From Somniosus microcephalus (lineage: Eukaryota): a stretch of DNA of 64,000 nt. Positions within the stretch are counted from its first letter, which is position 1. Every line of letters begins with the position of its first letter. Below, one piece after another: positions 10,904-54,096 of the stretch. The translations under genes were made by a program, and so were the position numbers. The stretch covers positions 23,684,001 to 23,748,000 of the forward strand of contig CM126228.1 in assembly GCA_052327205.1 (NCBI GenBank). The letters are read 5' to 3'. The notes beneath the pieces are model-generated. The model had not been told where the DNA came from, did no database searches, and saw only the letters and a list, made by a program, of their open reading frames with translations.

Positions 10904-11635
10904 CTGAGAGAAGAAATAATGTCCAATCAGGAAATCCCTGGATAAGGGATCAGTAATTATCCTTAAAGTGCAAATATAGTTCTACTGATATTGGGTCGTG
11001 ATCAATATGATAAACTGAAACATGCTTCAAAAAGTTCCAAGAATTTTCTTTATACACTGGATATTCACCATGATTTCAAAGTCATTCTTTTAATGTTAAA
11101 ATGCAACAAAAAAATTCCAACACACTCTTTCCATCAGGTGTGCATTCTACACTTCCATCAGAATCCTTTATAAGTTTAAATGCTTGGGGCTTTCTTTGAT
11201 CAGGTAGCAGAATGTGCAGAGCGCAGGATCACGATGGACAGAATATTCAGACGGTTACTCATGTATAAAATAATTACAATAACCACATGGCGGTACGCAG
11301 GCTGGAATCTTTGTCACCATGAAATGTGAAAAGTGAAGCTACAGGTGTTGAAACAAGACCTCAAGACGGAACCACAATGTGGAATATGCAATGGCACATA
11401 AGGAAATCTGAATGATGCACCTGCATGACTCCATTAGTCAGAAGCAATAAAGTTACAAGGGAACTGTAATGATTAAATGATTAGTTAAAAATGTCAAATT
11501 TCAGTTTTTATTAAAATGGGATCTTCACTGGTACAACTGTTCTGGTGGTGGAGTGGTACCCGATGCTGGGTGTGATTGATCAGAGCTAGGTTACTACTAT
11601 GCTGGGCTTCAGGACTACAAGCAGTTCTAGGAATG

Positions 11636-11856: not shown

Positions 11857-13548
11857 GGAATCTGGGCTACTCTCACTGTAGCAGCATTTAAAACAAGTTT
11901 TGTTCTGTGGATATTGCTAAGTTCTATATAAAAAGGAAATAATACACACTTTATTAATAGCAGCCAGATTCAGGATAGGCTTTGTATAAACGCAAAGCTG
12001 TGGAATCTTCAAAAAAAAAACAGAAAACACTATCCCATAAATCTGACCGTAAGCAGATGAAATGACAGTTTTCCAACAAACAAAATCTCAGCTCCTCACC
12101 ACTGTAGTTGCAAGACCAGCAATTGATGAAAATGAGCTCAACAGTGTGAAGGCTTGCATTACAGTTCAAAAGTGTCCAAAAAGTACCCAAAGTCTCATCT
12201 CATCTACTGACACTGCCATTTTGAAATTCCTACCAGTACTATCTTTAATCACACTGTTGGATTGTTTTAAAATACAAGGTAAACTATGAACATAGATAGG
12301 AGACGGTCAAATAACAATGTGGGAAGTTGGAATAGACTGTGCAAGGAAAGCAACAAATGAGCGGTTTTGTTTTTAGAAGTTTCAACATTGCTTTTAACGT
12401 AGCAAAATGTCCCACAGTCCTTTGTGCAAGAAACACGCACCAGATATAACGTGATGTCAGGACACTGCATCTGAAAATATTACAGAAGTTAAGTGGCTGG
12501 GTGAGGAGTGTATGAAATAGAGAAAATGAGTAAGCAAGTGCAGTAAGTATATGGGCATTTTATTTAATAGCATGCATGCTATGTAAATGAAACACATAGG
12601 GAATCCACTGTCGTGGTGACCGTACAACTGTATTGGTGTATATTTCAGTGCTATTACCTAACCACATATGTAATTTCCAGTCTGGTCACAAGATAGGAGA
12701 CTGCCAAACAGCAGCTGGAATCCCTCACATACTTCCTTGGCACACAATGATTTCCACCTCCCCTCTTTTTGCCTCCCTTGCCAAATACAGTAGCCCCTGA
12801 AAGATACAATGCCTACTCAACTCATTAGTGGTTCACATATTCCAAAAGACACATCAGAGTACCCAAGGTCTAAGTGAGGCTAGTGATTCGCGGTCTAAGT
12901 GACGCTAGTGATTAGAAGAAAATCCCTCCACCCCATAGAGCAGCAGATGCAAGCAACAAGCTCCAGTAAAACAGTTAACACAACGTTTAAATATCTCCCC
13001 CAGCCTTACAGCCCTGCATGCACCCCCTACTTCTCTGATAAGCTTCTCCTTGACTTCTGCTCCATCACTGGCCAGTCAGCCACAATGCTCCTGTCCTTTG
13101 GAACTCCCCCTCATTCCCTTTACCATGACGCCTCCTTCCCTGCTTTCAAGACCATTCTTTTCAAACGTGCCCTTGGCTCCAAACCCTAACCATTTTCCCC
13201 TTTTACCTTCTACTTGGTGTCCATTGCCTTTTCCTCCTCAATGTTAAGTGCTTGGAGTCTAAATGCTGCACGAGGATGGCTACGGAAATGCAAGCTGCTG
13301 TTGTGTAAATTAACTCTAATGTAACAGTATGAGGACAGATGCTGACCAAATACATTGAAGACAACAATTCCTGTGCTACAGTGACTGGAAGTTTACCTGT
13401 AAATAAAAACAAATGGGCTGAATAATTATAACTCTAGATATTCCAGGTTTACAGCTGAAAGATAGCCAGTGTGTGCCCAAGTGATGACAAGATCAAAATC
13501 CATAAGCAGCTCCAATGTAGAATTGTAATTAATTCCTGACCTCTGTAA

Positions 13549-14866
13549 TCTATCTATATATCTATATATATAAATCGGTACTTCTGTCATTCTGTCTATC
13601 TGTCTGTCATCGCGTGTGCGTTGCGGGTATGCACTCGAAAGTTACAGGGCGTACCTACGCGCGCGTTACCTCCAAAGAAAGCTTACGCTTCCGAGACGGT
13701 TTTAAGCGTATTTACGTTTCGGCCGGGCTAAAATTGCGCCCGCGGTATCCCAAAAACCTTCAACATTCTGCTCATTAGCATCTCATTATCCGCTCATTAG
13801 CGACAGAGTGACCTCGAGCTCGACCAATCGTACGCCGGGTTGCTGGCGTGTGCCGCCGGGCCAATCGGTGCGCGTGTGGCCGGGCTTTATCGTTCTGAAC
13901 CGAGGTGAGTCGCCGCCATCTTGATTCCAAACTTTTCCTTTCTTTTTCCCGCTTTCTGTGTCTTAAAAAAAAACGTTGCTTTTAAAACACATTGTTTTTT
14001 AAAAAAATGATTTAGAAAGTAATTAACTTATCTAATCTCATTAATTTTCCTACCTTTCCCCGTTTTTCCAGGTAGGCCTAGAAGCCTCGGCGTCTCCTCC
14101 GCACCCACGCCCGAGCTAGGCACCTCCCGGCCCCACTCGAAGGCTGGAGGGCCGAGCCTCAGCCCAGCGCCGCTAGGGTGCGCGCGCAGCAGGAGCGGAG
14201 ACGTCTCTCTCTGCCGGGGCTTGCTGAGCGTCCAGCGTTACCCTGGCAACGGGCGCAATCGGCGGTCTTCACCTCGGGGGGAGCGGCCGCGACCCTCAAG
14301 GGGGGGGGGGGGGGCCGCGCGCGCAGCAGGAGCAGCTGAGACGCGGCGTCTCTCTCTCTGGCTTGGTCAGCGTCACGGTTGCCCTGGCAACCGGGCCCGC
14401 CAGCCAAGAGAGACGCTGCGTCTCAGCTCCTGCTGCGCGCGCGCGCAATCGGCGGTCTTCACCTCCGGGGGGGGGGGGGGGGGCGGCGACCCTCGGGGGG
14501 GGGGGGTGCGCCCGCCGCCCTCCCTCCCCTCCATCCCCCCCTCCCCTCCCCCGCCCTCCCTCCCCGCCCTCCCTCCCCTCCCCTCCCCCCGCCCTCCCTT
14601 CCCCTCCCCTCCCCCCGCCCTCCCTTCCCCTCCCCTCCCTTCCTTCCCCCCTCCCCTCCCTTCCTTCCCCCCTCCCCTCCCTCCCTTCCCCGCCCTCCCC
14701 CCCTCCCTCCCCCTCCTCTCTTCCCCCCAGTCGCTCTCTCTCTTCCCCCCAGTCGCTCTCTCTCTTCCCCCCGTCGCTCTCTCTCTTCCCCCCGTCGCTC
14801 TCTCTCTCTCTTCCAACAACAACATGCCCTCGAAAAAGCCTCGGCACCGCCGGGCACTTCAGCTAG
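13549..14866 (+). mobile_element. Non-autonomous Helitron (1318 bp)
   Basis: Starts 5'-TC (TCTATCTATATATCTATATATATAAAT) after a host A and ends CTAG-3' before a host T. A subterminal GC hairpin GCCTCGGC-ACC-GCCGGGC lies about 8 nt before CTAG. There is no TSD, and a TCTG microsatellite sits near the 5' end. Confidence 0.8.
14505..14813. repeat. C-rich polypyrimidine low-complexity tract plus about 4 copies of a ~21-nt unit (GTCGCTCTCTCTCTTCCCCCC)
   Basis: Seen directly. It produces the spurious Pro-rich and Gly-rich ORFs in the track. Confidence 0.9.
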
Positions 14867-14997
14867 TATCTAATAAAGATGTTCAAGTTATATTTGGTGA
14901 AAGCAGCTGGTAATGGGCATTATGTAATAAGCAACCACCAACAATGGATATCTGAATTAAGCTTGCTCTTCATGGTATAACTGTCTTCATGGTATAC

Positions 14998-15171
14998 CTG
15001 ATCTATTTGATCCTGTTGTCCCTTGTACACAGTTTCTGGGTCAGATGGGGGTCTCAGGTGAAATTCAGAGTCACAGAAATTTCCATCTCCATCCACGTTG
15101 TGTAAACTCTCCCAGACCACCTTCTCTTCTGTAAGAAAGCCCTGGTCTGTCACCAGTAGATACAGCTGGCC
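14998..15171 (-). CDS. MINDY2: MINDY2 coding exon (174 nt): GQLYLLVTDQGFLTEEKVVWESLHNVDGDGNFCDSEFHLRPPSDPETVYKGQQDQIDQ
   Basis: Acceptor TAATAG and donor GTATAC. 58 codons. The RPPSDPETVYKGQQDQIDQ linker matches MINDY2 rather than MINDY1. Confidence 0.97.
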
Positions 15172-23335: not shown

Positions 23336-23766
23336 AGGTTGCTTAAGTAGGCCTCAACTGAAGATGGGTTTAACACCTTATGTGAAGTGGTTCTTCATGT
23401 AAAATAATGGAGTCATGTCAAAACAGCGATGGTGGTGACAGAAGACAATGTGGTACATCATTTTTTCCATTAAAAAATTTGAGTACATTGTCACAAATAC
23501 AATTTGCTTCAAGAAATTACACTTTTGCATCATAATTATAAATGTACAAAAATGACGAGCATCCTATCTTTTTGAAATAAAAATGGAATATTCCATAATA
23601 AGATTTTGCTCCTCTATTTGAACCTTCATTTTAGAGTTATTTTTCCACATAAAGACCACATCCTAAAGAATTTTAAAGTTCTTGCTTGGTCTCATGCAAT
23701 TCTCATCAGTATCTGTTCCCATCTCCACCCTAGTTCTGGTGATTAATTGATCTCTTTACACCCTTA

Positions 23767-24485
23767 GGCCTAGAAATTCACTTTGGGCCCGCCAGCTGGC
23801 GTGCGCCCAAAAGTTAGCGCTGAGCGCGGAGCCAGTTGCGACCGTCAGATATTCAGTTTTTGCGTCCCAAGTCGGAACCGGGCGCTATTCCAGGGTGTGC
23901 CCGCCCCCGCTTGGGGCGCTGAAACTGAATTTCAGCGCTCTAGGAGCCGCTGCGCCACCCGCTGCGGAGCGGCAGGCTGCGGTACTGCAGGCCTCCTCCT
24001 TCTCTGAAGGGGGAGGTGCCTGCAACGGGGAGATCGCCACTGGATAGTGCCGGCAAATGAGCCCGGCACCACGGAGAAGTGCCGGGTTCGCGGAAAGCAG
24101 CCGGGGGGGGGGGGGGGGGGGGGGGTGGAGGTGGAGGAGGCCGGGGCAGGAGGTGCGGGCAGGCGGCCGCCGAAAAAGCGGCCGGCCGCACCTCCACCTT
24201 AAAGCGCCCCACTAAGGCTACAGTACGGCCCCGTTTTCTGATCGCTGTTTGCGGCCGCTGTGGAAGAGGCGGCCGCAACTCAATATGGGGGTCGGGCCGG
24301 TAGCGGGGGCGGTAGCGGGGCACTGCGCACACCGATGACGTCATCGGTGCCAGCGCAGCGCTAACGGCTAACGCCGCCATTACCGCTGCGCTGAATATCA
24401 GTGCAAACTCCTCTATTGGCGCAGAAGCCCTCTTTGGGCGGTAACTGGCCGCAAAGCTGGCAGCGCCTTACTGAATTTCTAGGCC
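23767..24485. mobile_element. GC-rich PIF/Harbinger-like MITE, copy 1
   Basis: TIR GGCCTAGAAATTCA / TGAATTTCTAGGCC. The flanks are TTA and TTC, a 3-bp TSD with one mismatch. Confidence 0.82.
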
Positions 24486-24978
24486 TTCGTTTCTGAATAG
24501 TTACTGCTTTCTTCCCTCTTGCAATGTTTTTGCTATTTATCGATGCCTGTTAATGTTTTTCAGCTACAGAAATGCCCACGTTAAACACGTCCAACACCTA
24601 TTCAAGAACTAGTCCTTGAACACCAAGTTCCTTTCCCCCAAACAGGGATGACAGATCTCTCAGTCAGGCAGGCTATGCAAGGAGGGAGATACACAGTGTG
24701 AAACAGCAGATCTGACAGTTGCCAAAACCCACAGATGCCAGTTGTCCTGCCCGGTTATGAAATAGAAGGATGTGTGTATTTCTGCTGACATCCAAGTCAT
24801 ACAAAGTAGACAAAATTTTAAACATCCAAGTTACTAATCCTGCATCAGAAAAATGCAAAAAAAAAACCTTCACTGCCTGTAAATTAAAATGGAAACAATA
24901 TTTTAATCATACTTTTGAGAGTGAATAGCCTGTAAATACTAAATGAAGCTGCCATTTCTAAAACAAATAAATTGAAGA

Positions 24979-52684: not shown

Positions 52685-52991
52685 CTGTGAAGAGAGAAAT
52701 TAAAATTACAAATACCATCAAAATATCACACTCTCAAGATTAACTTCAATGCTCACTGAAAACTACTTTTATACATTAGGTAAATTAGGTTCCATCCACC
52801 GTAGCACTTCCACTAATCACCACTTTCACCTCTGTCCCTTTGACATCAACTTTCTCCAGCATCAGTAACAAATAAGCTGTAGATTCCCTAATTTTGTGGA
52901 ATCAATGGTGTTATGAAGCACAAAAGACAGGAGACACACATGAAATTGTCACGTTGTCCCCCAACATCACCTCAACAGTTTAATAGTCTAA

Positions 52992-53679
52992 GGCCTAGAA
53001 ATTCAGTGGGCTACACCACCAGTTAACGCCCAAAGAGGGCACTTAGTGGGTTTAGCGCCACTGGCCACGCCTCCCGCGAAATTTAGCGGGGCGCTAATGG
53101 CGGCGTTAGCAGGTGGCGCTGCGCCGCCACCGATGACGTCATCGGTGTGCGTAGCGCTTCACTACCGCCCCGATCGCCAAATTTGGTAGCGCCCCCCCCC
53201 CCCCCGCTGTAACGCCGGTCGCAATTTGCGACCGGTTCTGGGGGGGCCTACCTGCGGCGGTAGAGGCACGGACATTTTTTTTTGCTGGCCGCCTGCCAGC
53301 ACCTCTTCGCGCAGCCGTCCCCGGCCTCCTGAGCGCCCCGCCCCCCACCCCCGCGTTGTGCCGGCTGCCTCCCAAGAGCCCGGCACTTCTCCTCGGTGCC
53401 GGGCTCTTTTGCCGGCATTCGCGATCTCAGACCGCGCTGCAGCAGGCCCCTCCCCTTTAAGAAATGGAGGAAGGCCTGCAGTACCGCAGCACGCCGTGCC
53501 GCAGTGTGTGGCGCTGCGGCACGTTGCGCTGCGATTTTCAGTTGCAGCGCCCCAAGACGGATGCGGGGCGCCTCGAGTAGCGCCGCGCTTCCGTTTGGGG
53601 CGCTCAAACTGAATTTCCGGCAGGCGCTCGTGACTCCTTCCGGGGCGGTACTTCTGGTGCCCTGCCGAATTTCTAGGCC
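52992..53679. mobile_element. GC-rich PIF/Harbinger-like MITE, copy 2 (opposite orientation)
   Basis: TIR GGCCTAGAAATTC / GAATTTCTAGGCC with a perfect TAA TSD. The interior is homologous to the reverse complement of copy 1. Confidence 0.88.
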
Positions 53680-54096
53680 TAAATATCAACTGTCAAGGCT
53701 CAAAAACATCATACAGTCTAAGAAGAAACGTTATGTAAATTGGCTGCATCATTCTGCAAGTTCATTTTAATACTTTAGCTTGATAGAATAACAAAATGCA
53801 AAGGTTGCTTTACTATGCTGCAGCTCAACAAGCTGGTAGCTAACAAATAGAATCTGAACATCTACAATAATGGTAAACAAATTTATACTGCACAAATGAC
53901 CAAAATGCAGAACCGGTGAGTGACAAAGTAAGCTGTTTGGGGATACAAGTAACATGAAAATAATTTTCCACTGTCATTTTCTATTTTTTCCAGTTTAAGC
54001 AAATGTTTAAATTCAAAACTTTTTAAAATGCATACTTTTACTGAGCTTTTTGTTAGATGGCACCCAGTGATTTTCTAGGATATACCCCAGCATGTA

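Follow-up and report, generated by a model that had tools for sequence, protein, structure and literature searches.

The DNA analysed here, referred to as the window, is a stretch of 64,000 nucleotides from Somniosus microcephalus (the genome size for its assembly is 6.45 Gb), which holds part of the MINDY2 gene on the minus strand and, in an intron of this gene, a gene-less Helitron on the plus strand (Table 1). The product of the MINDY2 exon at 14998-15171 is identical to PDB 6z7v at 48/48 aligned residues, confirming what a preliminary description of the locus had proposed, namely that a MINDY2 exon lies on the minus strand, 131 bp from the 3' end of the element, and that the element is antisense to it. 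Given that the next MINDY2 exon begins near 10906 and the first coding exon is located ~53 kb away, outside the window, the element occupies a late intron and is oriented opposite to the gene. Elsewhere in the assembly, a second MINDY_DUB family gene, presumably MINDY1, was found at C41:11476681-11486798; its introns are much shorter than those of MINDY2 in the window.

Table 1. Features of the Helitron copy and its surroundings, in window coordinates.
Feature	Position	Strand	Remarks
Non-autonomous Helitron1 (HLE1) copy	13549-14866	+	1,318 bp; A/T insertion site in a MINDY2 intron; orientation opposite to that of MINDY2
5' terminus, TC(TA)n	13549-13578	+	compared with 29 other copies
Two CCAAT boxes in NF-Y context	13824-13865	+	boxes at 13824 and 13861, 37 bp apart
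GC-box position of RepHel elements	13876-13886	+	from alignment; GGCCGG here versus GGGCGG
Splice donor GAG/GTGAGT, then YY1-type site	13902-13923	+	GT at 13905; predicted end of non-coding exon 1
Predicted short 5'-UTR intron	13905-14075	+	167 nt to AG at 14071, or 171 nt to AG at 14075
GC-rich, internally duplicated predicted exon-2 region	14076-14514	+	two RFX-type X-box palindromes; second donor position
CT-rich low-complexity tract	14518-14807	+	resembles the tract that fills the last intron of coding elements, ahead of their RepHel ATG
Likely RepHel-start relic	14818-14837	+	ATG at 14824; fused to terminal hairpin; presumed homology
3' terminus	14838-14866	+	hairpin 14838-14855 and CTAG; last 28 nt common to RepHel-coding elements
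AATAAA in host flank	14872-14877	+	6 bases beyond the 3' end; could serve plus-strand read-through as a poly(A) signal
MINDY2 coding exon	14998-15171	-	58 codons, end of catalytic domain; donor GT 14997-14996

Termini, copy number and age of the element

Both termini of the element are intact, as had been claimed: A at 13548 is followed by TC at 13549, and CTAG ends at 14866 with T directly behind it. We took the definition of Helitron1 (HLE1) from the available parts of PMC11417382. The element has TC at its 5' end (13549, with the family start at 13561), a short hairpin and CTRR at its 3' end (hairpin at 14838-14855, 11 nt before the end, and CTAG), an A/T insertion site without terminal inverted repeats (self-comparison yielded internal inverted segments only), and ends in common with an autonomous RepHel element, all of which it shares with the non-autonomous HLE1 Helitrons described there. 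Short terminal inverted repeats and a T/T insertion, which mark Helitron2/Helentron (HLE2), were not found in the element. Taken alone, the terminal hairpin is weak (-6.7 kcal/mol, z -1.58), and 12/200 shuffles fold equally well. Comparison with 29 other copies places the family-typical 5' start at 13561, leaving 12 extra bases of TCTA/TA repeat at 13549-13560. DNA contigs of two organism labels (runs X1 and X2) stop 42 and 31 letters beyond 13544, which would point to a filled site in either case; an empty allele was not seen among the contigs of the two runs.

Other copies with the same termini had been anticipated, and at least 2,334 exist in the genome as judged by the exact 40-nt 3' end, while the 31-nt intron acceptor region has 2,472 exact copies (the reversed control gave 0 in each case). 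A search with the 5' 556 nt returned 3,213 candidates, and the best 40 of these 3,213 to be scored are 97-100% identical. Summed contig depth was rejected as a measure of copy number. CTAG is followed by T at 61/62 3' ends, and A precedes TC at 39/49 5' ends; in a count of distinct non-tandem flanks, T follows in 41/41. At 10 of 30 3' ends, the next copy follows directly. Head-to-tail arrays with CTAG/TC joints were observed at L003, L026, L031, L034, L045, L047, L055 and other loci. Behind CTAG, the flanking DNA is rich in A and T and in many cases looks like the 5' end of the element itself, so that self-insertion may be favoured.

The preliminary description had also pointed to CpG-dense DNA in a CpG-poor intron. 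This is correct, with a CpG o/e of 1.13 in 13561-14514 versus 0.22 and 0.25 in the 1-kb flanks, but the density is not special to this element, as two other, unrelated inverted-repeat elements in the window reach ~0.9. The positions 23766-24486 and 52991-53680 each hold a CpG-rich element of ~700 bp; the two are related and end in 14-bp terminal inverted repeats. Ten bases of this 14-bp repeat match 14074-14083 of the Helitron, possibly by chance. The element at 52991-53680 is flanked by TAA on both sides, a mark of PIF/Harbinger-type MITEs, which suggests that it is one. Among 30 close copies of the Helitron, 66 transitions fall on 2,966 CpG positions versus 40 on 5,281 other C/G positions, a ~3-fold enrichment, and the two substitutions that only the window copy has are changes from CpG to TpG; this pattern would fit germ-line methylation. 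The high CpG content reflects youth. More than 2,000 such gene-less Helitron1 copies exist, and the one in the window is young and mostly ordinary.

A promoter-like cassette and a candidate intron

The two CCAAT boxes, the donor, the YY1-type site (GCCGCCATCTTG at 13912-13923), the branch-like site (CTAAT at 14032) and the acceptor were all found where the preliminary description had placed them. TTTCCAG ends at 14071, so that an intron of 13905-14071 has 167 nt. The position given for the acceptor, 14070-14071, stands only in part: an AG is present there, but the AG that aligns with the acceptor of a divergent variant is the one at 14074-75. This short intron occurs in two variants that are ~71% alike and both keep the donor, the branch-like site, the pyrimidine tract and AG/GCCT; the divergent variant was located in three RepHel elements.

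In 3,000 dinucleotide shuffles of 13561-14260, neither two extended NF-Y sites nor the chain of CCAAT, donor and YY1 site appeared even once, while the YY1 site was found in 6/3,000 and the donor in 32/3,000, for motifs that had been picked after being seen. Further downstream, RFX-type palindromes, as judged by the X-box consensus, are located at 14237-14250 and 14378-14391. The 64-kb window holds no others, and one RepHel element contains four. At the second donor position, CAG/GTGAGA stands at 11 places and CAG/CTGAGA at 36 in the fetched loci, and the window reads CAG/CT. Close to the 3' end, 14818-14831 match the acceptor-ATG junction of coding elements at 13/14 bases, with AA in place of the acceptor AG, and five codons after the relic ATG the sequence enters the terminal hairpin. 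Elements of the window type would have arisen by internal deletion.

The cassette in RepHel-coding elements

A Pfam search gave 407 RepHel candidates, of which 150 were scored and 30 fetched, mostly for their long open frames; these represent 29 distinct loci, each with 4-9 kb of upstream sequence. A 5' module homologous to 13561-13930 (67-94%) is present in 17/29 loci, the donor together with the YY1-like site in 14/29, and a pyrimidine tract with the CATAACAG acceptor, set off from the RepHel ATG by one base, in 21/29; module, donor and acceptor occur together in 12/29. The pattern of acceptor and ATG has 185 exact occurrences in the genome and 0 in the control. In the other 12/29 loci, the 5' module was not found within the 4-9 kb fetched; truncation, insertions or membership in other families may account for them.

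The coding elements share a common order, which comprises a TC(TA)n end, CCAAT boxes, a GC box, GAG/GTGAGT, a YY1-type site and one or two introns, with a CT-rich tract in the intron that leads to the TTTTCATAACAG acceptor, one further base and the RepHel ATG. Most RepHel elements carry 2-5 CCAAT boxes, of which the final pair is spaced by 32-33 bp, and have their GC box 25 bp ahead of the donor; the optimum for CCAAT spacing is 31-33 bp. A spacing of 37 bp and no GC box were seen in the window, in most close copies and in one coding element. Because GGCCGG stands where RepHel elements have GGGCGG, the GC box has been lost in the window subfamily, which also lacks the 32-bp spacing, the second donor and the final acceptor. 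At the 5' part of the window element, the match to two coding elements is 92-94%. Across 10 aligned modules the 5' parts are 69-94% like that of the window element; AGGTGAGT and GCCAT are invariant in 10/10, and right after the YY1 site the sequences diverge and differ between subfamilies. Coding elements of three RepHel subfamilies contain the module, which adjoins the 5' terminus without a break.

In three partners, the RepHel frame is open throughout (1,488-1,580 aa) and includes HUH and tyrosine motifs; one of these frames failed the last helicase motif. One partner, of 1,488 aa, contains Helitron_like_N and PIF1 domains and has its last 28 nt in common with the window element; its best structure match is Helraiser (7lcc, E 3.5e-244). 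The stop-free frames (1,488, 1,580 and 1,495 aa) lie at C5:124110646-124118552 (L111), in the C2:27029430 region (L097-L098) and in the C10:102409646 region (L101-L102); all start with MP(S/P)..KR, behind which an N-terminal segment is repeated in tandem, and they are candidates for recently active partners.

Other RepHel elements have been rearranged. L091 (C1:229884543-229893525), L095-L096 and L105-L106 end in the CT-tract and ATG-relic 3' end of the non-autonomous copies rather than in the plain 28-nt end, which suggests that they gained a new end by read-through into an adjoining short copy. In L096, about 4.1 kb inside the Helitron leader and between the module and RepHel, there is a probable LTR element, an insertion flanked by two direct repeats of ~300 bp that begin with TG.

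The preliminary description had proposed a Helitron with a mobile module of promoter, non-coding exon and intron, and this is borne out, with the module moving in thousands of copies. It had left the source of the module as either captured or the element's own. The latter is favoured and the former is not, given that RepHel elements have the module at their front and, beyond it, an acceptor one base ahead of the ATG. Since the module is common to RepHel-coding elements, together with an aligned acceptor before the ATG, it is best read as a transposase promoter and leader. We consider it highly probable that the module of CCAAT boxes, donor, YY1 site and intron is the transposase's own promoter and 5'-UTR, which was kept after a likely internal deletion and is likely silent here.

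Two other explanations have to be weighed at this point. The first is that the module was a host promoter and first exon captured by a Helitron, in the manner of HelibatN3; if so, it would be an old capture that was later used for RepHel. Its motif set resembles the 5' end of a housekeeping gene and lies far beyond the shuffle expectation, and capture of promoters by Helitrons has been documented in bats, as the available parts of PMC4778049 report. In addition, pieces have been shuffled: the 15-nt YY1 stretch recurs in a different context in one divergent RepHel element, and the GC-rich 5' interiors of two RepHel elements are unlike that of the window element. Set against this are the continuity of the module with the 5' terminus and its presence in the coding elements of three RepHel subfamilies. 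The best 40 of 3,213 matches are moreover all 97-100% identical, the 30 that were fetched were examined as family copies, and reading of the module revealed no recognisable host-gene coding fragment. We regard such a capture as improbable and, going by the sequences compared here, the cassette is very probably not a capture. An ancient capture of the donor and YY1 piece, dating from before the subfamilies separated, is conceivable, as family copies dominated the genome search, in which the best 40 of 3,213 candidates were scored.

The second explanation, that the motifs are accidents of GC-rich transposon DNA and have no role in transcription, would agree with a donor whose use was not seen in RNA, and near-identical copies are not independent evidence of function. 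It is nevertheless scarcely credible given a motif chain that appeared in none of the 3,000 shuffles, motifs that are kept across divergent subfamilies while the sequence around them changes, and a matching acceptor separated from the ATG by one base in 21/29 coding loci.

Family RNA and the MINDY2 exon

Two RNA runs, chosen by species label (organism B, possibly a relative of the window species) and read to 24% and 31%, gave 1,698 and 3,214 reads on 13400-14460; these are family-wide and map to both strands, the strandedness of the libraries being uncalibrated on the host gene. That this copy is spliced, as had been supposed, was not borne out: neither the 13904/14072 nor the 13904/14076 joint is among the 12 joints listed for the two partial runs, in whose 101-nt reads a first exon of less than ~30 nt is hard to see. 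No capped-type start at 13870-13900 was listed in the two runs either. Hundreds of family reads include sequence upstream of the last CCAAT box and thus did not start at the predicted promoter, which fits passive read-through of many copies. A rise in RNA depth at 13868-13939 was considered as a transcription start and rejected, since loose ends trace it to other subfamilies that have this segment in common and extend upstream. We infer promoter function from anatomy, because neither a transcription start nor a spliced read from the donor was seen. A search for an intron-less (processed) copy in the genome returned 0 matches, a weak negative.

In L116, a coding element whose leader is short, the joint from exon 1 to the RepHel acceptor is not among the six joints listed, and loose ends at the acceptor are not among the best six per run. 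In run X7, however, minus-mate depth at L116:5629-5680 climbs from 5 to 55 reads over the six bases that follow the RepHel acceptor base, mostly on one strand, versus only 4 to 10 reads in run X8 and no rise in DNA contigs. Arithmetic puts the X7 step within ~2 bases of the acceptor, which is suggestive of a used RepHel acceptor; the step may also come from few molecules, or from a host exon spliced in.

The preliminary description had further envisaged antisense transcription into the MINDY2 exon. This proposal is unsupported rather than refuted: RNA reads covered 13400-14460, the unique left flank (13400-13543) had 0 RNA depth in the two partial runs of organism B, CpG decay has set in, and AATAAA stands at 14872. 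AT-rich signals of this kind are common after insertions of this family, with AATAAA in 6/41 flanks and TATAAA in 12/41.

An active promoter in the window copy, producing spliced plus-strand RNA that extends antisense into the MINDY2 exon and acts on the gene, would have the right orientation and the right distance (131 bp), and it could draw on intact CCAAT boxes, donor, YY1 site and acceptor, on a CpG o/e that is still 1.13 and on an insertion that the contigs suggest for two organism labels. We nevertheless hold it to be very improbable. The short-intron joint is missing among the 12 listed from 1,698 and 3,214 reads, no intron-less genomic copy was found, and the element has neither the GC box nor the 32-bp spacing, and neither the second donor nor the last acceptor. 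CpG decay argues in the same direction, as do the AATAAA before the exon and the distance of ~53 kb to the first coding exon of MINDY2. Moreover, ~5 copies are expected in this arrangement by chance (from ~2,400 copies, an assumed ~200,000 exons and 6.45 Gb) and, by this estimate, the nearness to the MINDY2 exon would be expected by chance for a family of this size.

Discussion

The meaning of the locus itself is small, as the window holds one copy among thousands. The family, in contrast, gives a motif-level picture of how a Helitron transposase is likely to be expressed, with a CCAAT array, a GC box, a short non-coding exon and an intron that ends one base before the ATG. NF-Y, Sp1 and YY1 would start the transcript just ahead of the donor, and splicing would join the short non-coding leader to the RepHel ATG. 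To judge from the relic at 14818-14837, the non-autonomous family may have arisen when the open reading frame was lost a few codons past the ATG. Given that both ends are intact, the gene-less copies could be made in trans by RepHel, an established mechanism that presumably operates here as well, and the cassette would ride along because it adjoins the 5' terminus. One such copy would have landed at an AT-rich site in the MINDY2 intron.

A more far-reaching and doubtful view is that this Helitron1 family was recently, and is perhaps still, active, with a native spliced NF-Y/Sp1/YY1 (and RFX) promoter tuned to dividing or germ-line cells and uninterrupted transposase frames of 1,488-1,580 aa. 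It would have seeded thousands of promoter and donor modules through the 6.45-Gb genome, some of which would now serve as alternative or antisense promoters of host genes. Uninterrupted RepHel frames beside copies that are 98-99% identical would offer a natural vertebrate Helitron to test; Helraiser, the worked example, is a reconstruction. More generally, a non-autonomous Helitron may have a promoter-like cassette that was never captured, and coding relatives should be checked first.

Among the papers listed on Helitrons and sharks, none describes such a family in its title or abstract opening, and no direct description of a Helitron's own promoter, or of a layout of CCAAT boxes and intron, was found among the papers listed on that subject. 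Likewise, the passages of PMC11417382 at hand describe no promoter or introns belonging to the elements themselves, and the word 'intron' has 0 occurrences in that text; from the HLE1 Helitrons of these passages, the window element shows no group-defining difference.

Several known systems resemble the family in part. The NF-Y-regulated promoters of cyclin B2, cdc25C and thymidine kinase, which are tied to the cell cycle, contain precisely spaced arrays of multiple CCAAT boxes (PMC1802594, available parts). The RepHel elements have similarly spaced arrays, mostly at 32-33 bp, and the window subfamily at 37 bp, the NF-Y sites being predictions here. Heli1Xen1 of Xenopus laevis has a presumed 5' promoter of its own, an annotated 5' UTR and ChIP signal including that of rfx2, myb and foxn4, according to the available parts of PMC12001565. 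By description rather than by sequence, the present family is alike, both being young vertebrate Helitron1 elements with an uninterrupted RepHel frame, a 5' UTR and a presumed 5' promoter. Heli1Xen1, however, comprises three autonomous insertions (PMC12001565), compared with hundreds of RepHel-bearing places here, and the same parts of that paper give no description of its promoter at the level of motifs or introns. The layout reported here goes beyond the 'presumed promoter' of the literature, in as far as these parts represent it.

HelibatN3 of Myotis is, like the window element, a non-autonomous vertebrate Helitron that spreads a promoter and a splice donor (PMC4778049, available parts), and Helraiser (PDB 7lcc) is a relative of the partner transposase of the window family. 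In HelibatN3, promoter and donor were captured from NUBPL, and the element traps exons in sense orientation, as the same parts of PMC4778049 describe. An element of the HelibatN3 type would carry a module that is absent from its autonomous partner; the window element does not belong to this type because its coding partners have the module, which stands ahead of RepHel in 17/29 coding loci. Thus, the HelibatN3 promoter stems from a host gene and works by exon trapping in sense, on the account in those parts of PMC4778049, whereas the module in the window traces to a transposase gene, is antisense to MINDY2 and belongs to a copy in which activity was not seen.
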